Shown here: piece by piece, positions 21,647-62,564 of the stretch | How positions within the stretch are numbered: the stretch's first letter is position 1 | How the letters are laid out: each line of letters opens with the position of its first letter | NCBI GenBank assembly: GCA_019322435.1 | Contig: JAHWIR010000008.1 | Coordinates: forward strand, 21,647-85,646 | Direction of reading: 5' to 3' | DNA length: 64,000 bases | Source of the DNA: Candidatus Woesearchaeota archaeon | Lineage (GTDB): Archaea; Nanobdellota; Nanobdellia; Woesearchaeales; WJKL01 | The notes under the pieces: generated by a model | The model's input: the letters and a program-made list of their open reading frames with translations, nothing else | What the model was told of the DNA's origin: nothing | Database searches by the model: none | Translations under genes and position numbers: made by a program

Positions 21647-21657
21647 AAAAAGGATTT

Positions 21658-23543: not shown

Positions 23544-24383
23544 TTATCTTTTTAGTTTGTTATACATCTTATAGAGATATAGGGAATCTTTGATTTGCTC
23601 TCTTTCCCAGCCTTTTTTTATTAGGATAGTTATAATTTGTTTTTCTGTTTTTCCTTTGCGCTTTAATTTTCTTACTTTGGAGAGCAGTATTTTTCTTGAC
23701 ATAATCCTTAATAAGCTTCTCTTTTTCATTACTGAAGAAAAGAAAGATGGTTCGGTTTCTTTTTCATCTTTTTCAGCCAGGTATTTGTCATATCTGTGGA
23801 GGGCATCAATCACATGCCTTTCTTGCCAGCCTTTTTCTATCAATAATTTCTTTATTTTTCTATTTTCCAGTTTTTTGCGCTTTAATTTTCTTATCCTGGT
23901 GAACAATAGCTGCCTTCTGAATTTTCTCCTTATCCTTCTGAAATGTTTCTTTTTTAGTGGCAGGACAAGCGCAGGGATCTCTTCCTCTTGTTTTTTGATC
24001 TCAGCATCATACCTGTAGATTGCATCAATCTCGTGTTTTTTCTTCCAGCCTTTTTTTAGCAGTATTGATTTAATCTCGGTGTTTTTCAGTTTTTTGCGCT
24101 TTAGTTTTCTTATCCTTGCAAACAATAATCTTCTTCTAAATTTCCTTCTTATCTTGTGGAAAAAACCTGATTCTCTTGGCGGAATAATTATAGCAGGGGT
24201 TTTATCTTCTTTTTTTAGATGACGTTTCTTATACCTATGGAGGGCATCACCTACATGTTTTGCATGCCACCCTTTAATAATCAGTAATTTTTTAATTTCC
24301 CTTTCAGGAAGGCCTTTTTTGGTTAATTTTATTATGCGGTTGAACAATACCTGCCTTCTTATTTTTCTTTTTATCTTATGAAG
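23544..24383. repeat. Intragenic tandem DNA repeat, ~220-bp period x4
   Basis: The TTTTTTGCGCTTTAATTTTCTTA core recurs near 23648, 23874, 24090 and 24330. Confidence 0.7.
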
Positions 24384-24716
24384 GAGCTTTCCCTTTTTCA
24401 ACACCAGGAAAAATAAGATGATGATGACAGCTGGAGGCAGTATCAATGCCCACCACTCTATTCTTTTTCTTTTCTCTTCTTCAATCTTTAACTCTATTTC
24501 TTTTTCTGCTTTCTTTGCTTTCAGGTATTCATTAAGAGCTTTTAGTACTGCTTCAGGGATTTCAGTTTGGTTATAATCTTCTTGAGAATCATCATAGACA
24601 CTGATTGTTTCTGCTTCTAGCTGGGGCTCATCTTGTATTGTTTCTTCCTGCGCAGCAGCTGGCATAATCAAAAGAAACAGCAATACAGTTAAGGATATCG
24701 CCTCTTTTTTACTCAT
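23544..24716 (-). CDS. Basic single-pass membrane protein with four tandem ~70-aa repeats ('KGW' module)
   Basis: The protein has a signal peptide, one TM helix and then four copies of an RRKFRRxLLFxRIRKLKRKKL...IKxLLIxKGWxxxHVIDALHRY module. The underlying DNA has a period of about 220 bp. Confidence 0.6.
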   Translation of the reverse strand: MSKKEAISLTVLLFLLIMPAAAQEETIQDEPQLEAETISVYDDSQEDYNQTEIPEAVLKALNEYLKAKKAEKEIELKIEEEKRKRIEWWALILPPAVIIILFFLVLKKGKLLHKIKRKIRRQVLFNRIIKLTKKGLPEREIKKLLIIKGWHAKHVGDALHRYKKRHLKKEDKTPAIIIPPRESGFFHKIRRKFRRRLLFARIRKLKRKKLKNTEIKSILLKKGWKKKHEIDAIYRYDAEIKKQEEEIPALVLPLKKKHFRRIRRKFRRQLLFTRIRKLKRKKLENRKIKKLLIEKGWQERHVIDALHRYDKYLAEKDEKETEPSFFSSVMKKRSLLRIMSRKILLSKVRKLKRKGKTEKQIITILIKKGWEREQIKDSLYLYKMYNKLKR

Positions 24717-54098: not shown

Positions 54099-54992
54099 AT
54101 GTTTTTTTATATGAGATGGAGATATATTGCTTTGGGTTCATTAGTATTGGTCTTAGGAGGAGCGATTTATTTAGAAAATGTTCTAACTAAAAAAAGACTT
54201 GAGAGGCCTGTTGTTAAAGAGCATGGTATTGAGAAGATAATTAAAAAAACAACTATCTCTTTTGAAGAAGCTTGCAGGGATCATGCGAAAAGAGAGAAAT
54301 ATATTTTGGATATTAAAAATAAGATTTCTTTGCCTGAATTTGCTGATCTTGAATATGTGAGTAGAGGTAGATTAGAAGATATTCTGAAATATAATAAGGA
54401 AGCATTAAAGCAGGATGTTAAATTATCTGATAAACTAAACGCTATGACTGCACCTGGCGGCAAGAAGGTTAAAGATTTCTTTGCAAAAAAAATGCATCCA
54501 AAGATATTGGTGTTTTATCATGCTTTTGAAAGTGATAGTGTAAAGAATGAAGCTGATTTAAGAAGCGTTATAATTCAAGAAATAGATCATGCTAGATTTT
54601 ATCATGAAGGTGATGAAAGAATAGATAGTGATAAATTAAGAAAATATCTAAAACAGGATTATGATAGGAAGCCTAAGGATAAATTTGGCCACATAGTAAA
54701 TATTTTTATGGAATTAAGAGGAACTGAGATTCAAATGAAAAAGTTTACAAAGAAAAATTCTCAGAAGTATATGAACCATGTTCTTAATTATAATTTTGAA
54801 AATTATGTTGCATTATGGAGACATGATAAAAAACCCTTGGCTAATGATCTTAAGATGTTATTTTTCAGAAAATATATGTTAACATACCTTGGACAAGATG
54901 AAAAAGGATTTTACCTTGAACCTGTTGAAGAATTTAAACCAATAACAAAGAGACTGTATCTTCCTGAAGGAATTAAGATTGAATTTAAATAA
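54099..54992 (+). CDS. Hypothetical N-terminally anchored protein (297 aa)
   Basis: ORF with an N-terminal TM helix. Confidence 0.45.
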   Translation: MFFYMRWRYIALGSLVLVLGGAIYLENVLTKKRLERPVVKEHGIEKIIKKTTISFEEACRDHAKREKYILDIKNKISLPEFADLEYVSRGRLEDILKYNKEALKQDVKLSDKLNAMTAPGGKKVKDFFAKKMHPKILVFYHAFESDSVKNEADLRSVIIQEIDHARFYHEGDERIDSDKLRKYLKQDYDRKPKDKFGHIVNIFMELRGTEIQMKKFTKKNSQKYMNHVLNYNFENYVALWRHDKKPLANDLKMLFFRKYMLTYLGQDEKGFYLEPVEEFKPITKRLYLPEGIKIEFK

Positions 54993-55116
54993 AAACAATT
55001 ATACAATGTAAGCTGGTAATTGTGAGCGAGTTTATGAGCGCACTCGCAAGTCACTGCTTACAAGCATAAATATTTTGTTAAAACAAAATATTTATATAGT
55101 AGATTATTCTAAATTA

Positions 55117-55131
55117 TTCTGAATATCAGAA
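55117..55131. promoter_or_regulatory. Inverted repeat TTCTGA-N3-TCAGAA, candidate operator upstream of abrB-like gene
   Basis: The half-site TCAGAA recurs at 55183-55188, overlapping the start codon, and in inverted orientation near 55165. Confidence 0.25.
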
Positions 55132-55186
55132 ATATTGATATTTTGATTGATTAATTTACTTATTATCTGATATTCTTATTTTCAGA

Positions 55187-55345
55187 ATGAAGAACTTTAA
55201 AGTAGTACAAGCTGATAAAAGAGGACAGATAGTTATTCCTAAATCTATTAGAAAAGAACTTAAGATAGAGGAAGGTGCTGCATTCTGGATATATAAGACT
55301 GAGGAAGGCATTGTTCTGAAAAAGATTCAAGCTCCTAAAAGGTGA
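55187..55345 (+). CDS. AbrB/MazE/SpoVT-family (swapped-hairpin) small DNA-binding protein, 52 aa
   Basis: The ORF encodes MKNFKVVQADKRGQIVIPKSIRKELKIEEGAAFWIYKTEEGIVLKK. It is below the ORF-track cut-off and ends 5 nt before the giant protein's ATG. Confidence 0.65.
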   Translation: MKNFKVVQADKRGQIVIPKSIRKELKIEEGAAFWIYKTEEGIVLKKIQAPKR

Positions 55346-55350
55346 TACCC

Positions 55351-58300
55351 ATGGCAAAAAAGAAAAAAACTCCTAAAAAAGCTGCTAAAAAACATGTAAT
55401 TCCAAAAGATGTCAAAGGTTTTGTTTTAACTTTGTTGTTTGCAGTTATTGTACTTGTTTTAGTTGTTGGTGTAGTTAGATTAACCAGGCTGGGAGTTGTT
55501 GGAAAGGCATTTGAATATGAAGGAACAGAAGTTGATTTATCTGATTATCCTTATCCTTTTGTTGACGGGTGTGATTTTAATGGAGCTATTGTAGTTGGAG
55601 ATAATGCTCCTGCTGAAGATGTTACTGGTGCTACAGATATTTCTTCAACTCTGGCAGTGAGTGGAGAGATAGATGGTGAAGCTTGTAATGTTGACATGCC
55701 TCCTAATAAGCTGGCTTCTGAAGTAACAGATGTTTCTGCGCAGAATGTAATTTCAGTTGGAAATCCTTGCGATAATGCTATTTCAGGAGAATTGTGGGGG
55801 AATCCTATTGATTGTGATATGGGCTTAAGTGAAGGCCAGGCAAGGATTAAGATGTATAATCTAGGAGGAAATATTCAATTATTAGTTGCAGGGCCTACTA
55901 CTGAAGATACAAGAAGAGCAGCAAGAGTATTGTATAATTATACTGATTTTATTTTAAGCGGAGAAGAGGTTTGTGTTACTGGAACCACTTTAGATGATAT
56001 GGAAGTTAGTGCAGGGGCTTGTGTTGTGGGAGTAAATCCACTTTATTTAGCTGATGGCGAGATTACAGAAGGAATTTTAGTGGATAATTATGACGCAGGA
56101 TGGATAAGTTTGGAACCAGTAACCTCAAATTTAGGCAAGGGTCAAGCAGATTATGCTTATTTCAATGCTCAAGGGGATTTGGTAGGGCTTTTTAATATAA
56201 TTCCAGGTAAAAATTTAAGAGTGCGTACTTTTGAAGAAGAAAGTGAATTTGAAATAGATATAGTTGCTGATGGAAGATCTTTAAGGATATACATGCCTTC
56301 TTCTTCTGCAGAACTAATAAATGGAACAGTAGTTTATGTGGCTGATGATGGATCTACATATTATGATACTGATCTAACACAATCAGCAAGGATTGCTCCA
56401 AAACCAGAGTGCACAGATACTGATGGTGGAATGGACTATTATACAAAAGGCACTTGTGTAGATTCTAATGCATATCCAACTGGCGCAACTGACCATTGTC
56501 AGGTAGATGAGGGAGTAATGCATCTATATGAGATGTATTGTCATTCAGAGTATGAATGCCATAGTGCTGAAGGTTATGAATGTCCAAATGGCTGTGCAGA
56601 TGGTGCTTGTATACCTACAAATGTGGAAGATTGTACTACAGTGCCTTTCCAAGATGCAGACAGGGATGGGTGTCATGCAGGACTTGATTCTGATTGTGGA
56701 GGAATAGAAGGAGTTAATGATCCATCACCAGAAATAACTTGTTTTGATGGTATAGATAATGATTGCGATGGAATGATTGATGGAGATGATGATGATTTAA
56801 GTTGTCAAAAAGAATGCACAGATTCTGATGATGGAAGACAGTACTATAAAGAAGGAAGCATATTTGGATGTTTAGGGACTGGATGTACTGTTCCTGTTGT
56901 AGACAGCTGTGTTGATGGAGTTATTTTAGAAGAAGGGTATTGTGACAAGGAAACAATGAAGTTTGAAGAATATAGCTGTCCAAATGGTTGTGAAGGCACT
57001 GCTTGTGTTTCTGATTTTGCAGTTAATGGCTGCAAAGCAATAGAGTTGAATACAAATGTTGTTGATGGACAAATCTTTTTTGATGTATTAGCAGGAAATG
57101 GAACAGAGTTTACTCAGTTTGGTGAAGCAGATACAACTGATCATATTCCAATGAGTGATGATGAAAATCCAACATTTGTATATGACGCGGATTTGCATGG
57201 GTTGTTTATTGTATCAGATGTATTAGCTAAGAATACTTATTTTATGGAAGTTACTAGAATTAATAATGAAGATGGAATTGATTTCAAAAATGTTGTTACA
57301 GGACTGGTGTGGGATGATGTAAAAGCAGGAGATATATTTAGTGTTGGAGAAAGTATAGTAGAAGTTATTGATTATGATGCTTCTATTGAAAATAGTGTAA
57401 CAATAAAATTATATGATGCTTATATGAACAGAGTTTATACAGCAGATGGAAGAGAGATTTTGCTGACTGCTGGCGGATCCTTACCTAATGAAATATATAA
57501 GATGTGGGTGAATGAGGCAGATGGTGGCCAAACAGTATATTACTTTGAATGGGAAGATGGTTGTGCTGTTATTGAAAATATTGTGAGTGTTCCAGTGCCT
57601 ATTGAAGAATGCACAGATACTGACGGCGGAAGAAATTATTATGAAGCAGGAAGTGTATATACTTGTGCAGGAGATTTATGTGTTATTCCTGTTGCAGACA
57701 GCTGTATAGATGGATTTACTTTACAAGAAGGATTTTGTGATAAGGAAACAATGCAGTTTGAAGAACATACTTGTCCAAACGGCTGTGAAAATGGTGCTTG
57801 TGTTGGGGAATGCACAGATTCTGATGGCGGGTTAAATTATTATGGAAGAGGAACTGTGCATGGCTTAGAATTGCCAGATGTCTGGGATACATGGACTGAT
57901 TACTGCGGTGAGGCAGGTGAAGAAGAAGGCAAGCTTGTAGAGTATGTATGCAGAACAGACGATTATGGAGAAAAAGTTCTTTATGAATGCCCTCAAGGCT
58001 GTGAATATGGTGCCTGTATTGATCCTGAATGTTACGTGACAGGCACATTAGAACAAGGAGAAACTGCAATATATATTATAGGAGAAAAGGAATATGAAGT
58101 TGAAGCAACATTTATTGGTGAAGTAGAAGTTGTTACAATAGCTAAACTTAAAATTAATGGAGAGGTTACAAAAGCATTAGAAGAAGGTGAGTCTTATATA
58201 TTAAATGATGGAACTGAGATTAAGATTCTGACATTAATTGAAAATGATATCCCTCTAATGGATGTAGTGACTTTTTGTTTTATGAAGGCAGAAGGAATTT

Positions 58301-59040
58301 GCACAGATACTGATGATGGAAAGGATTACTATAAAAAAGGAGAGTTTAGTGGTTTTTGGCAAGGGGAATTAATAACAAATACAGATTCTTGTGTAGATGC
58401 TCTTGATGAAACTGGAGATGATGTTTATTCAAGTGATTATTTAGGAGAAGGGTATTGCGAAAATGGAGAACTAAAAGTAGAAAGAATTGTTTGCGAATAC
58501 GGCTGTGAAGATGGCGCTTGCATTATATCTCCAGAACCGCAGGAATTTACAGTTGAGCTTGATGAAGAATGGAATCTTATTTCACTTCCATTGGTATTAG
58601 AAGACAGGGCTGTGGAAGCTGTATTTTCAGGAATAGAGGGTAATGTTAGGGTAGTTTATGCTTATGATCCTTTAGAAGAATGGAAGGTGTGGTATCCTGA
58701 TCCAGATGTGCCAAGCAATCTGGAAACAATAGATCCAGGAAAGGGCTATTGGATTTATATGAAAGAAGAAGATAAACTGACTGTTGAAGGGACAGTGGGA
58801 GAAGGAGATCCTCCAAAACCACCAAGGATTGATGTAAAACCTGGCTGGAATTTGATTGGAGTTCATTCAATAGCACCAAGGCAGATATCTAGTGCGCTTG
58901 CGAGTATTGAAGGAAAGTACATCTCATTATGGGGCTATGGTGTGGAATTGATAAAGTTGGATATAGAGGCTAATCCATACCTAGAGCCAGGAAAGGGGTA
59001 TTGGATTTATATAACTGAAGAAGGAGAGATAATACCATGA
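55351..59040 (+). CDS. Giant (1229 aa) membrane-anchored surface protein with S-layer terminal domain, five Cys-rich CTD(T/S)DGG..YY repeats, a MopE-like metal-binding motif and twin C-terminal 'PGKGYWIY' modules
   Basis: The start is at the ATG after a GGTGA Shine-Dalgarno; the ORF track's GTG lies 9 nt upstream. A Lys-rich N-terminus and a TM helix precede the domains. See findings for the repeat listing. Confidence 0.7.
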   Translation: MAKKKKTPKKAAKKHVIPKDVKGFVLTLLFAVIVLVLVVGVVRLTRLGVVGKAFEYEGTEVDLSDYPYPFVDGCDFNGAIVVGDNAPAEDVTGATDISSTLAVSGEIDGEACNVDMPPNKLASEVTDVSAQNVISVGNPCDNAISGELWGNPIDCDMGLSEGQARIKMYNLGGNIQLLVAGPTTEDTRRAARVLYNYTDFILSGEEVCVTGTTLDDMEVSAGACVVGVNPLYLADGEITEGILVDNYDAGWISLEPVTSNLGKGQADYAYFNAQGDLVGLFNIIPGKNLRVRTFEEESEFEIDIVADGRSLRIYMPSSSAELINGTVVYVADDGSTYYDTDLTQSARIAPKPECTDTDGGMDYYTKGTCVDSNAYPTGATDHCQVDEGVMHLYEMYCHSEYECHSAEGYECPNGCADGACIPTNVEDCTTVPFQDADRDGCHAGLDSDCGGIEGVNDPSPEITCFDGIDNDCDGMIDGDDDDLSCQKECTDSDDGRQYYKEGSIFGCLGTGCTVPVVDSCVDGVILEEGYCDKETMKFEEYSCPNGCEGTACVSDFAVNGCKAIELNTNVVDGQIFFDVLAGNGTEFTQFGEADTTDHIPMSDDENPTFVYDADLHGLFIVSDVLAKNTYFMEVTRINNEDGIDFKNVVTGLVWDDVKAGDIFSVGESIVEVIDYDASIENSVTIKLYDAYMNRVYTADGREILLTAGGSLPNEIYKMWVNEADGGQTVYYFEWEDGCAVIENIVSVPVPIEECTDTDGGRNYYEAGSVYTCAGDLCVIPVADSCIDGFTLQEGFCDKETMQFEEHTCPNGCENGACVGECTDSDGGLNYYGRGTVHGLELPDVWDTWTDYCGEAGEEEGKLVEYVCRTDDYGEKVLYECPQGCEYGACIDPECYVTGTLEQGETAIYIIGEKEYEVEATFIGEVEVVTIAKLKINGEVTKALEEGESYILNDGTEIKILTLIENDIPLMDVVTFCFMKAEGICTDTDDGKDYYKKGEFSGFWQGELITNTDSCVDALDETGDDVYSSDYLGEGYCENGELKVERIVCEYGCEDGACIISPEPQEFTVELDEEWNLISLPLVLEDRAVEAVFSGIEGNVRVVYAYDPLEEWKVWYPDPDVPSNLETIDPGKGYWIYMKEEDKLTVEGTVGEGDPPKPPRIDVKPGWNLIGVHSIAPRQISSALASIEGKYISLWGYGVELIKLDIEANPYLEPGKGYWIYITEEGEIIP

Positions 59041-59903
59041 AGAAATTAGTTTTACTTTTAATTTTTGTATTTATTGGAACAGTTTATGCCCAGCCGCAGT
59101 TTCCAATACAGATTTATGGAGATATAACTCCTGCAATATCAGATGGTTCTGAGATTCGTTTTGAAGTAGATGGATTAGAGGTTGGCTCTGGAGAAATAAT
59201 GGATAATAAATATGGTGATCCTCCTTTATTTATTGAAGTAGATGATACAGCAACAATTGAAAAAGAAGGATATGCTGATGGAGATGTTGTTGATGTTTAT
59301 ATAGAAGATGTCAAGGTAGATGAAATAACTTTAGAAGGAAATCTTGTTGAAAAAGACATAACCATCTCTGGTGATGATTTTGATGAAGTACAAAAGGAGA
59401 CAACCACTGCTGATACTAGAAGAGGAAGTGTTGGAACTAGTATAGCATGTGATCCAAGCTGGGAATGCAGTGATTGGGAAGAATGTATAAATGGAAAGCA
59501 AACAAGAACTTGTATTGATAAATGGGAATGCGGAACTGATGATGGAAAACCTGCTGAGATTCAAACCTGCATTGAACCTGCTGCAGCAGAGCCTAAAATA
59601 ATTCCATCTATAGAAGAACCCCTAGTGATTGAAGAAAAAGGTAGGGCCTGGATTTATATCATAATAACCATAATTGTGTTGGGATTAGCAGGAGGATTAG
59701 GATTTGTAATCTATGAAAGAGAAAGAGCTCATAAATCATTACAGCAAGAAAAACAACAGCCCAAGTTAGAAGATCAATCATTTATTAGGCTGCAAAGCTA
59801 TGTAAAACAAACTTTAGATCAAGGTTATACCCGAGAACAAATTAGGGCTGTGCTTTTAAGAGAAGGATGGTCTCAAAGTGTAATAAACAAGGCATTAAAA
59901 TGA
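59037..59903 (+). CDS. Secreted single-pass membrane protein with Cys-rich CxxWxCxxWxxC...C.D.W.CG module and cytoplasmic 'GW' tail
   Basis: A signal peptide is followed by ACDPSWECSDWEECINGKQTRTCIDKWECGTDDGKP and a TM helix. The tail reads [25 protein letters not shown]. The start ATG overlaps the upstream stop in an ATGA pattern. Confidence 0.55.
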   Translation: MKKLVLLLIFVFIGTVYAQPQFPIQIYGDITPAISDGSEIRFEVDGLEVGSGEIMDNKYGDPPLFIEVDDTATIEKEGYADGDVVDVYIEDVKVDEITLEGNLVEKDITISGDDFDEVQKETTTADTRRGSVGTSIACDPSWECSDWEECINGKQTRTCIDKWECGTDDGKPAEIQTCIEPAAAEPKIIPSIEEPLVIEEKGRAWIYIIITIIVLGLAGGLGFVIYERERAHKSLQQEKQQPKLEDQSFIRLQSYVKQTLDQGYTREQIRAVLLREGWSQSVINKALK

Positions 59904-60643
59904 AAAAAATAATCAAAAATGTGGATTTGGCAGTAAGTTCATCAGTACTGTATATCTTGCTAGTAGGGGCTATACTTGTGTTTGCAATGGGCTATGATCC
60001 CTGGGAAAGCAATGATCTGGTTGGAAAGGCTGCTTATACCCCTGTGCAGGTGTATGGAACAATATTTCCTGACCTTCCTGATGAGACTGATATCAGCTTT
60101 AGGATTAATGGAATTACTATTGCTTCTACAACATTGAAGAACAATTCATATGGCTATGATCCAGAAGTGTATTTTGAAATGGATAATCCTATAACCTCAA
60201 AGATAGAGGGCTATGCAGAAGGATATATTGTAGGAGTCTATATTGAAGGGGTACAAGTTGCTGAATTCTCTTATTTTGACCCGTGGGCTACTGAAAAAAA
60301 TATCAATGTTCCTGCAAGCATAAGAGAAGAAGTGGCTACCAAGGCTGCACAGTCTGATATAGAAAGAGAATGTGCTGCTAATTGGCAATGTGAAGGCTGG
60401 GATGCCTGCATAAGCGGAATCCAGAAAAGAAACTGTATTGACTTGAACGGATGCGGATATGACTGGGACAAGCCTGATGAGGAAAGGGGGTGTACTGTGT
60501 CTCCTACTTTAGAGGCTGCTTTGGCAACTGCAAGCAATATGTTCTCATTTGAAGTCATTGTTTTGATATCACTGATGGTGCTGCTGATTGCATATGTGAT
60601 AATCCTATTGGTTAGAGGCAGAGGCTTAGAACCTGAAAAATGA
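59900..60643 (+). CDS. Paralogue of preceding Cys-rich single-pass membrane protein
   Basis: [36 protein letters not shown] is followed by a C-terminal TM helix. The start ATG overlaps the upstream stop. Confidence 0.55.
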
Positions 60644-61902
60644 TAAAGAATATCAAAGCAAGGGAGATTTTGGATTCAAGAGGAAATCCTACAATAGAAG
60701 TAGAGGTTATCACAAACAAGGCATATGCAAGAGCTGCTGTTCCTTCTGGAGCATCTACTGGAAAGCATGAAGCTTTGGAATTAAGAGATAAGGGGAAAAG
60801 ATATGATGGAAAGGGTGTTTTAAATGCTGTCAATAATGTTAATAGGAAAATTGCTGGGAAGCTTATTAGAATGGATGCAAGGAATCAAAGCGAAATAGAC
60901 AATATAATGCTAGAGTTAGACGGAACTTCTAATAAAAGGAAATTGGGAGCAAATGCTATTTTAGGGGTATCGATGGCTGTGTGCAAAGCAGGAGCACTGG
61001 AAAAAGGAATGCCTTTGTACAAGCATATTGCTAATCTAGCTGGGGTGAAGGAAGCTGTAATGCCTGTTCCTAGCTTTAATGTCATCAATGGTGGAAAGCA
61101 TGCTGGGAATAAATTAGATATCCAAGAATATATGATCTTACCTGTTGGCGCAAAGAGCTTTAAACAAGCAATGCAGATTGGAGCTGAAGTGTATCATGCT
61201 TTGAAAGGGATAATCAAGGCAAAGTATGGTGTTAATGCTGTAAATGTTGGAGATGAAGGTGGGTTTGCTCCTGGATTAAAAACAATTGAAGAGCCTTTGA
61301 AGCTGTTAAAACAGGCAATCAGAAAAGCTGGTTATAGTAATCAGGTTAAGATTGCAATGGATTGCGCTGCTTCTGAGTTTTTTAAAGCTGGAAAGTATAA
61401 TATTGAAGGAAAGAAGTTAAGTGGTGAGAAATTAATTGAGGTTTATAAGAAATTAATCAGGAAATATCCTATTGCAAGCATTGAAGATCCTTTTAATCAG
61501 GATGATTTTAAAAATTGGGGTAAGTTCGCAGGAAAAATAGGTGATAAGGTGCAGATTGTCGGAGATGATCTGCTTTGCACAAATGTAAAAAGAATGGAAA
61601 AAGCAATCAATAAGGATTGCTGCAATGCCCTGCTTTTGAAAGTGAACCAGATAGGAACAGTTTCAGAAGCAATTGAAGCAGCAAGATTAGCGCAGGAAAA
61701 AGAGTGGGGTGTGATGGTCAGCCATAGAAGCGGTGAAACATGCGATGATTTTATCGCTGACCTGGCTGTGGGGTTAAAAGCAGGGCAAATCAAATCAGGA
61801 GCTCCTTGCAGAGGGGAGAGATTGGCAAAATACAACCAACTTCTTAGGATAGAAGAAGAGTCTAAGGCAAGGTATGCTGGGAAAGGATTTAGAAGACCAT
61901 GA
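60640..61902 (+). CDS. eno: Enolase
   Basis: An [20 protein letters not shown]-terminus, an SHRSGET segment and full length at 420 aa. Confidence 0.95.
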
Positions 61903-62564
61903 AATTGCATATTTATCTTTTTAGACATGGACAGACTTATTTTAACAGAGACAAGATATTTACTGGGTGGAAGGATTCCAAGCTAACACCAAAAGGGATA
62001 AGGGATGCAAAGAAAGTTGCTTTGAAATTAAAAAATAAGAAATTCCAGGTTGCTTACCAGACAAGACTTTCTAGGAGCAAAGATACATTAAAGCCTGTGC
62101 TGAAATATCATCCAGAATGCAAAGAAGTTATTACAGATGACAGGATGATAGAAAGAAGCTATGGAAAATTACAAGGGAGATCGCACAAAGCATTTGTAAA
62201 AAAAGAAGGGACAGACACTTACAAGACATTACTGCACTGGCATAAGATTGACCATCTGGCTGGAAGAGAAAAACGAGAATTTATCAAAAAAACAGGAGAA
62301 GCTGAACTGCAGATAATAAGAAGAAGCTATAATGTTGGGCCGCCAGGAGGAGAGAGTGTAAAGATGGTTGAGAAAAGAGTTAATTCTTTTATCAAAGATT
62401 TATTGAAGAAGATGAAAAAAGAGAAAGTAAGTGTTGCAATAAGTGCCCATGGAAATTCAATGAGGCCATTCAGAAGATATTTTGAAAAGCTTACTGTGAA
62501 GGAGATGATGAAGCTGGAGAATCCGTGGGATGATTATTTTCATTATCAGATTGAGGTAAAATAG
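61899..62564 (+). CDS. Histidine phosphatase superfamily protein (phosphoglycerate-mutase-like)
   Basis: [10 protein letters not shown] contains the RHG motif. It sits adjacent to enolase. Confidence 0.75.

Follow-up and report, generated by a model that had tools for sequence, protein, structure and literature searches.

A large S-layer-like protein and its membrane-anchored neighbours in a Woesearchaeota archaeon, a gene pair found across DPANN phyla

The giant and its anchored paralogues

The genes described here lie in a 64,000-nucleotide stretch of a Candidatus Woesearchaeota archaeon (GenBank assembly GCA_019322435.1, contig JAHWIR010000008.1, forward-strand positions 21,647 to 85,646), which we call the window and number from 1. 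In it the gene for a large S-layer-like surface protein of 1232 residues, hereafter the giant (55342-59040, plus strand, GTG start), is followed on the same strand by two smaller genes identified from open reading frame (ORF) calls, A (59037-59903, 288 residues, 100% identical to NCBI KY332_02910) and B (59900-60643, 247 residues, identical to NCBI KY332_02915, P0013 in our set). The giant ends in a conserved domain, gct, while A and B are built from a beta-sandwich head, a six-cysteine module and a transmembrane (TM) helix. A gct-bearing large protein followed by an anchored head/module protein is the sole adjacency at this locus that is conserved across phyla (Woese-, Nano- and Aenigmatarchaeota).

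That A and B are paralogous, as had been proposed in an earlier, sequence-only reading of the window, was confirmed by BLASTP (33% identity over 199 residues, E 4e-34). Each protein contains exactly six cysteines, all within one module of ~41 residues and with the same spacing, C-5-C-5-C-8-C-5-C-12-C (residues 138, 144, 150, 159, 165 and 178 in A; 158, 164, 170, 179, 185 and 198 in B); the earlier label 'Cys-rich' suits this single module and not the proteins at large. An AlphaFold2 model of A, run on a 17-sequence family alignment (mean predicted local distance difference test score, pLDDT, 82), gives a beta-sandwich of seven to eight strands at residues 21-110 (59097-59366; pLDDT >90), in agreement with the beta-rich N-terminal region that had been read from the translations. 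This head is preceded by a classic signal peptide (residues 1-18, ...VYA|QP) and followed by a short 18-residue helix (112-129), the module of six cysteines and two tryptophans (138-178; 59448-59570), recognized by its cysteine spacing and modelled fold and accompanied by disordered linkers, a TM helix (203-239 in the model; 202-228, 59640-59720, by hydropathy) and a cytoplasmic three-helix 'GW' tail (236-288; 59742-59900), whose helices span 244-287 in the model (pLDDT ~95).

B repeats this order up to the membrane. Its leader, a hydrophobic segment followed by ...LVGKA|AY (residues 1-46; 59900-60037), gives way to a head recognized by an N-domain hidden Markov model (HMM; E 2e-40) and by alignment to A (47-137; 60038-60310), to the module with its characteristic cysteine spacing (158-198; 60371-60493) and to a C-terminal hydropathy segment at 207-245, in which the TM helix is placed at residues ~207-238 (60518-60613). 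The protein ends nine residues beyond (RGRGLEPEK), so that the tail is indeed confined to A, as first reported. The description of both proteins as single-pass holds for the C-terminal TM segment that hydropathy gives in each; at the N-terminus A has a signal peptide and B a longer hydrophobic leader, and B is single-pass only if that leader is cleaved. The split in charge between an acidic ectodomain (pI 4.1 in A) and a basic tail (pI 9.8 in A) fits a predicted type I topology under the positive-inside rule.

The head has no Pfam match and its profile found no relatives among PDB sequences. Foldseek searches with full-length A returned only weak prealbumin-like and Ig-like sandwich matches, and we dropped the attempt to name a family for the head because these matches were weak and of a generic beta-sandwich kind. 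A word-indexed protein database contains only about 17 proteins closely related to these two; those with a named source all come from Candidatus Woesearchaeota, and the others are metagenome proteins. A narrower head alignment searched against metagenomes added one further Woesearchaeota locus and three bacterial loci (L130-L132). The latter encode a secreted protein of 143-150 residues with 33-35% similarity to the A/B head, beside Rex-like and anti-sigma-antagonist-type genes as judged from ORF translations, and we regard this small, free-standing beta-sandwich as a probable generic and distant fold relative of the head outside the archaea.

The giant carries a domain-level match to the S-layer family S_layer_C (PF05124; E 2.3e-9 over residues 117-200, scoring 37.6 bits where the curated cut-off is 23.9). 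It begins with a basic N-terminus and one hydrophobic leader, which provides its only TM-like segment (residues 19-57), and has no C-terminal TM helix. Its last ~185 residues form gct (58480-59037), defined by alignment to related giants. The domain is an internal duplication, GWNLIS..W.VW..PSNL..I.PGKGYWIYM followed by GWNLIGVHS...SLW......PGKGYWIY, and ends in GEIIP, a motif kept as GxIxP across relatives. It is 42-46% identical to the corresponding part of the giants at four related loci (L001, L002, L005 and L007) and 32% identical, over a longer segment, to that of L003; it has no Pfam match and no PDB sequence match. The related giants range from 662 to 1472 residues and share the leader with the first ~100 residues, the S_layer_C segment (except in L002) and gct (in all), while their bodies vary (Laminin_G_3, Cu-binding_MopE, Cys repeats). 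The body of the window giant contains, at about residues 350-1065 (56390-58440), some six copies of a second Cys-rich repeat, CTDTDGGxxYYxKG...C...EGYC...YxCPNGCxDGAC, which also occurs in the L002 and L007 giants and after the six-Cys modules of another protein (P0124); it is a further uncurated surface module of DPANN archaea.

Within one Woesearchaeota group, the giants and the B-type proteins begin with the same kind of leader, in which a basic N-terminus leads into a TM segment and, some 11 residues further on, into the motif (V/I)(V/I)G(K/R)A(F/Y); A-type proteins lack this leader. We looked for [IVLAT][IVLAT]G[KR]A[FYAVH] in the N-terminal ~110 residues of all ORFs of the window and of loci L001-L008; matches were confined to giants and B-type proteins and always stood after the hydrophobic segment of the leader. 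The residues at positions -1 and -3 of the junctions (...VVGKA|FE in the giant, with its counterpart in B given above) are small and compatible with signal peptidase I. The giant and B leaders are putatively cleaved after the motif, and the leader may be a signal dedicated to export or processing.

The GW tail is conserved across all A-type homologues and gave only sub-threshold Pfam matches (RecX_HTH1, RepB_primase_C, HTH_33). Related GW modules occur near the N-terminus, ahead of a TM helix, in other surface proteins with several Cys modules. Elsewhere in the window, a gene on the minus strand (23544-24716) encodes a 390-residue protein with a signal peptide, a short ectodomain, one TM helix and then four tandem GW modules (..LLxKGWxxxxIxDALxxY..) in a very basic cytoplasmic region; the protein has no significant Pfam match.

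A gene pair conserved across DPANN phyla

In six related Woesearchaeota contigs the giant is followed by an A-type gene and, where present, a B-type gene. The overlap of four nucleotides between giant and A is kept in all six loci, window included, at which this junction is visible. One contig has the order B, giant, A (L002), still with the giant-A overlap, and two lack B (L001 and L007). Co-occurrence with a large surface protein, which the sequence-only reading had put forward as a point on which its grouping would stand or fall, was kept in every related locus that we inspected.

HMMs for gct, for the A/B-type head and for the tail were next applied to the 120 listed GTDB loci. Among the matches listed, gct was found in 12 further loci, five from Aenigmatarchaeota (L021, L044, L068, L085, L102), three from Nanoarchaeota (L032, L059, L061), three from unclassified archaea (L027, L046, L109) and one from Woesearchaeota (L124). 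In 10 of the 12 (11 if the more divergent pair of L028 is counted) it is accompanied downstream by an anchored protein of 250-490 residues that runs from a signal peptide through a beta-sandwich, a Gly/Thr linker and one six-Cys module to a C-terminal TM helix and a short basic tail. Its gene directly follows that of the gct protein in all of these loci but L109, which has a gene for a small anchored beta-sandwich protein without the module in between. The exceptions are L068, with the reverse order, and L124, in which the modules lie inside the giant itself. The gap between the two genes runs from -7 to 172 nucleotides, and is 364 nucleotides across the intervening gene of L109. The conserved feature is therefore adjacency, and the four-nucleotide overlap is a feature of the Woesearchaeota.

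The same association appears when the anchored proteins are taken as the starting point. The listed loci encode 22 proteins in which one module precedes a C-terminal TM helix, and 11 of the 22 have a gct protein no more than 400 nucleotides upstream, one of the 11 (L098) lying on the same contig as L002; that of L028 is a more divergent case. By our reading of the sequences, the proteins with such a neighbour coincide exactly with those that have an A/B-type head. All of the ~11 proteins that we judged by eye to have an A/B-type head, with a signature read from the distant sequences as PHxFYGxVxxNGxPAPDGTxV, have a gct giant upstream; the head HMM itself detects few of them. The distant giants carry other bodies (PKD, Big_5, Big_13). 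Where the N-terminus falls within the fetched locus (L109 and L032) it is an ordinary cleavable-looking signal peptide, and no other TM segment is predicted, which suggests that these giants would need a partner to stay attached. In two Aenigmatarchaeota loci (L021, 6759-7508; L085, 2729-3505) the anchored protein is followed by a conserved 250-residue protein that has a signal peptide, a C-terminal TM helix and no Cys module and that gave no Pfam match, possibly a third component of the system in these archaea.

In the window the giant, A and B belong to a longer run. Six co-oriented genes, beginning with a 52-residue AbrB/MazE-type (SpoVT-AbrB) gene (55187-55345, plus strand; PF04014, E 1.7e-8), continue beyond B with enolase (60640-61902; Pfam E 6e-131) and a His_Phos_1 phosphoglycerate-mutase-type gene (61899-62564; Pfam E 1.4e-35), and every consecutive pair overlaps by four nucleotides. 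The AbrB-type stop overlaps the start of the giant as GTGA, and the ATGA overlaps reported earlier are present at 59037-59040 (TGA of the giant, ATG of A) and 59900-59903 (TGA of A, ATG of B). The TGA of B overlaps the ATG of enolase (60640), and enolase overlaps the mutase-type gene (61899). Such overlaps join 9 of the 39 same-strand gene pairs of the window, and five of the nine make up this run. As they run on through enolase and the mutase-type gene, they point to a compact operon structure and not to a dedicated trio; the further claim that giant, A and B form one translationally coupled unit could not be upheld, since the same overlaps tie in the AbrB-like gene and both downstream genes, and the distant DPANN pairs are adjacent without them. 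The AbrB-type gene is probably the first of the unit, while enolase and the mutase-type gene are context, outside the surface system. An in-frame ATG at 59867 offers an alternative start for B; the start at 59900 agrees with the NCBI gene model and with the homologues P0014 and P0015.

The only sizeable intergenic gap of the run is a 194-nucleotide spacer before the AbrB-type gene (54993-55186). It contains a TATA-like TTTATATA at 55091-55098 and a perfect palindrome, TTCTGAATATCAGAA, at 55117-55131, which are a possible candidate promoter and operator. A sigma-70 promoter/terminator scan, itself uninformative in the case of an archaeon, gave nothing above shuffled expectation. Scans of the whole window for tRNA genes and Rfam families were empty.

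The block typical of the close relatives reads SpoIIM, in some cases AbrB, giant, A-type, in some cases B-type, enolase and mutase-type gene. In L001, L003/L129 and L005 an AbrB-type homologue immediately precedes the giant. SpoIIM, AbrB, enolase and the mutase-type gene are neighbours in close Woesearchaeota only and do not adjoin the pair in the distant DPANN loci. We had considered a link between the Trp-bearing tail of A and enolase, by analogy with TRAP and aldolase, and rejected it because enolase adjoins these genes in close relatives only. Between SpoIIM and the AbrB gene of the window lies a gene for a 297-residue membrane-anchored protein of unknown family (54099-54992, plus strand); its homologue in L002 (9070-9972) stands after the A-type gene and before enolase, and the gene changes place within the surface-gene locus. 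Downstream of the locus in one relative (L005, 12796-16683; L006, 5772-9659), a DEAD-box helicase is interrupted by an intein with a LAGLIDADG endonuclease (1295 versus ~220 residues).

A widespread six-cysteine module with a TSR-like fold

The six-Cys module could not be named from sequence in the first reading, and it does remain unnamed in curated libraries; it has, though, a structural relative in the thrombospondin type 1 repeat (TSR) and is very common in DPANN archaea and bacteria belonging to the candidate phyla radiation (CPR). Scans of A, B, their sub-domains and proteins with 7-17 module copies against Pfam and NCBIfam returned nothing above threshold for the module. The known families suggested at the outset, EGF-like and laminin, gave no Pfam or NCBIfam match in A, B or the 7-17-copy proteins, and no EGF or laminin structure was among the fold matches of the module. 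An exhaustive search with a module HMM built on 11 sequences recovered 7,923 representatives of 50% identity clusters at E<=1e-3, 2,137 of them at E<=1e-10, with up to 17 matched stretches per protein, which places the module among the commonest extracellular repeats of DPANN and CPR organisms.

A degenerate DNA pattern of the module, run against GTDB species genomes, found at least 120 loci (by our estimate ~0.004 would be expected by chance). The matches listed include archaea (Woese-, Pace-, Nano-, Aenigmat- and Micrarchaeota, Diapherotrites/Iainarchaeum and Nanohaloarchaea) and CPR bacteria (Saccharibacteria, Parcubacteria, Staskawicz-, Buchanan- and Kerfeldbacteria and Peribacter). The pattern had no match in IMG/VR viral contigs, and a viral origin or role of the module was dropped on that account. 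Many 'binchicken' metagenome-assembled genomes labelled uncultured Methanosarcinales or Gammaproteobacteria also carry the module (L009, L014, L016, L017, L040, L043 and others). We suspect that these taxon labels are unreliable; L109, one of these genomes, has the gct and anchored-protein pair typical of DPANN archaea.

The natural variation of the module bears on its disulfides. Among 668 instances, 581 have all six cysteines and 79 lack exactly Cys2 and Cys4; Cys2 alone is lost, with Cys4 kept, in a single instance, and Cys4 is never lost without Cys2. This joint loss implies a C2-C4 disulfide; the other two pairings, and the mapping of the module onto TSR numbering, are uncertain. The invariant residues are two tryptophans, W8 and W13 (W-x4-W), and a single arginine, R23.

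In the predicted structure the module has a TSR-like fold, elongated, with a few antiparallel strands, and superposable on solved TSRs; its best structural matches are the TSR of MIC2, which ranks top, complement TSRs, semaphorin-5A and properdin. The likeness does not extend to sequence. Compared with known TSR-type domains (TSP_1, pleiotrophin/midkine), the module lacks sequence or profile similarity, has W-x4-W and one invariant arginine where the TSR hallmarks WxxWxxW and RxRxR, which form Cys-Trp-Arg layers, are absent, and carries a cysteine before the tryptophan strand. Canonical group 1 TSRs pair C1-C5, C2-C6 and C3-C4, a pattern from which the implied C2-C4 bond would probably depart, and the module is distributed among DPANN and CPR organisms whereas TSRs are eukaryotic. 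Searches with TSP_1 (PF00090) found nothing in A or B at E<=1 or in the 7-17-copy proteins at E<=0.1, the module profile found no TSR chain among PDB sequences at E<=10, and hhalign of the module against four TSR sequences gave a probability of 3.4%. With no sequence-level tie to TSRs, we call the module TSR-like in fold and keep it out of the TSP_1 family. PDB sequence searches with the module profiles brought up no relatives, and one match to the 24-residue toxin peptide HSTX-I (E 0.07) was taken as chance.

The module is not present in every A-type protein. In P0004, P0006, P0007, P0008 and P0010, and in the A-type gene of L003 (8979-10004), an unrelated domain of ~100 residues (..RSGDRILLNFNGAEHTIRVARL..) stands at the same position, and these proteins retain the head, the TM helix and the GW tail. 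Such exchangeability would fit the role of a spacer better than that of a specific ligand site.

A proposed membrane anchor for the giant, and its rivals

An S-layer-like giant that has no C-terminal anchor, the conserved gene pair and the logic of the SlaA/SlaB system together led us to propose A and B as membrane stalks. From architecture and gene context, our leading though tentative interpretation, which we hold at a little less than an even chance, is that they are SlaB-like anchor or stalk subunits of the giant. On this model the giant, A and B would all be exported, and A and B would be retained in the membrane by the C-terminal TM helix in a type I arrangement, with the acidic ectodomain outside and the basic tail inside. 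The short helix, a Gly/Thr/Pro-rich linker and the disulfide-stabilized TSR-like module would then form a rigid spacer that lifts the head off the membrane, and the head would dock on gct of the variable surface protein, tethering the canopy as SlaB does for SlaA in Sulfolobales. Co-expression would be provided by the adjacent, overlapping genes, and the cytoplasmic three-helix module of A could couple the envelope to a cytoplasmic partner.

Archaeal S-layers are anchored in several ways, co-expressed accessory proteins among them (survey preprint 10.1101/2024.05.28.596244). SlaB, with beta-sandwiches at its N-terminus and a TM helix at its C-terminus, is the more conserved partner of the variable SlaA (PMC10903991), and the gene for the large, variable outer protein adjoins that of the smaller, conserved anchor in the same orientation (PMC10903991, PMC6911244). 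Adjacency with co-orientation was likewise found in the window, in six Woesearchaeota loci and in ~11 distant DPANN loci, and A and B share with SlaB the order of N-terminal signal, beta-sandwich ectodomain and one TM helix at the C-terminus. The differences lie in the stalk, where SlaB has three sandwiches and a 132-residue coiled coil (a trimeric stalk) and A and B have one sandwich and a TSR-like module, and in the arrangement of the system, which here comprises two paralogous anchors, one with a cytoplasmic domain, and a large protein that keeps an N-terminal hydrophobic leader. No PDB sequence relatives of the head were found, and the likeness to SlaB would be one of architecture. Among DPANN archaea a parallel to the giants is the S-layer protein of Micrarchaeum harzensis (SLP_Mh), which combines an ambiguous N-terminal TM segment or signal peptide with motifs of the S-layer N/C and copper-binding types and for which no partner was identified. 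The description of the Micrarchaeum protein, in which S-layer (N/C-SLP) and copper-binding domains, akin to the S_layer_C and Cu-binding_MopE matches of the giants, were assigned by homology, left its anchoring explicitly unresolved and proposed a second, TM-bearing stalk protein as a possible anchor (10.1101/2021.04.28.441871).

Several points weigh against an anchoring role. Binding between the giant and A or B, anchoring itself, cleavage of the leaders and the function of the tail are all steps that we infer, and adjacency would be equally expected of surface proteins that are merely co-regulated. A and B have no apparent sequence relationship to SlaB and no long coiled-coil stalk. The assignment of the giant to S-layer proteins hangs on a single 84-residue Pfam match, with TIGR01564 scoring 19.4 bits, under its cut-off of 25, and an N-terminal hydrophobic segment that is not cleaved would anchor the giant by itself in this Woesearchaeota group. 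Finally, the distant loci were picked through the Cys-module DNA pattern and not through gct, so that the share of gct proteins with such a neighbour may differ from what these loci suggest.

Co-regulation, for instance by the AbrB-like protein, is central to the strongest alternative, in which A and B would be adhesins in their own right, or receptors through which an episymbiotic DPANN cell contacts its host, and would owe their place beside an S-layer gene to shared control. The TSR-like module, the head or both would then bind a ligand on a host cell or on a substrate. Eukaryotic TSR domains, the top structural matches of the module, are adhesion modules; the module is found alongside CARDB, PG_binding_1 and Ig-like domains in large multi-repeat surface proteins, which number in the thousands; and the giants themselves carry adhesin-like domains (Laminin_G_3, PKD, Big_5). 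The apicomplexan TRAP/MIC2 proteins offer a parallel in their type I topology, in a TSR beside the TM helix and in a short Trp-bearing cytoplasmic tail; this is an architectural analogy without evidence of homology. The heads are different, and motility would be an implausible function for A and B. What is conserved at these loci is the head and gct, whereas the adhesin-like bodies vary and the Cys module is dispensable in the swapped A-type proteins, and so strict an adjacency across phyla exceeds what co-regulation alone would lead us to expect. We consider the adhesin explanation unlikely.

Two further roles appear less probable again. A and B could, instead of being stable structural subunits, be membrane-bound chaperones or platforms serving the export, processing or lattice assembly of the giant, as tight operon linkage, the peculiar leader common to B and the giant (suggesting a joint export or processing route) and weak structural matches of the head to the usher FimD in chaperone-usher pilus complexes (9bog_D, 9fxs_D) might indicate. 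Such a role is improbable, given that Pfam and NCBIfam scans gave no catalytic or chaperone family signature, that head, spacer, TM helix and tiny tail form the architecture of a structural tether, and that the gene pair extends far beyond the single Woesearchaeota group to which the leader motif is confined. The least likely of the explanations, if by a small step, makes A a TM signalling or linker protein whose GW module relays the state of the envelope or recruits a partner; B, which lacks the tail, would be a decoy or co-receptor. This tail is highly conserved, confidently folded and faintly similar to helix-turn-helix domains, and its module recurs by TM helices on the predicted cytoplasmic side, four times over in the protein encoded at 23544-24716. 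Yet B and most homologues outside this Woesearchaeota group have a short basic tail only, so that the GW tail seems unneeded for the core function, and no known signalling domain was found; the idea is in any case compatible with the anchor model.

No description of the six-Cys module or of the gene pair was found in the literature. A large surface protein with a separate membrane anchor is a known kind of system; its components here (the head family, gct, the TSR-like module and the GW tail) are uncurated. That they make up a DPANN-wide two-component surface system, in which a variable canopy or adhesin docks via gct onto a head carried by a TSR-like stalk, is a possibility that we advance with more reserve than the anchor model for A and B. 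If true, it would explain how S-layers are anchored in DPANN archaea and would reveal a huge prokaryotic reservoir of a TSR-like fold regarded as essentially eukaryotic. S-layer attachment in this group is an open question, raised explicitly for Micrarchaeum, and the envelopes concerned mediate the cell contacts on which episymbionts depend. The gct protein and its anchored head/TSR-like partner offer a testable anchor candidate across several DPANN phyla, and defining the module would annotate thousands of 'hypothetical' DPANN and CPR surface proteins and bear on the origin of TSR-type modules.

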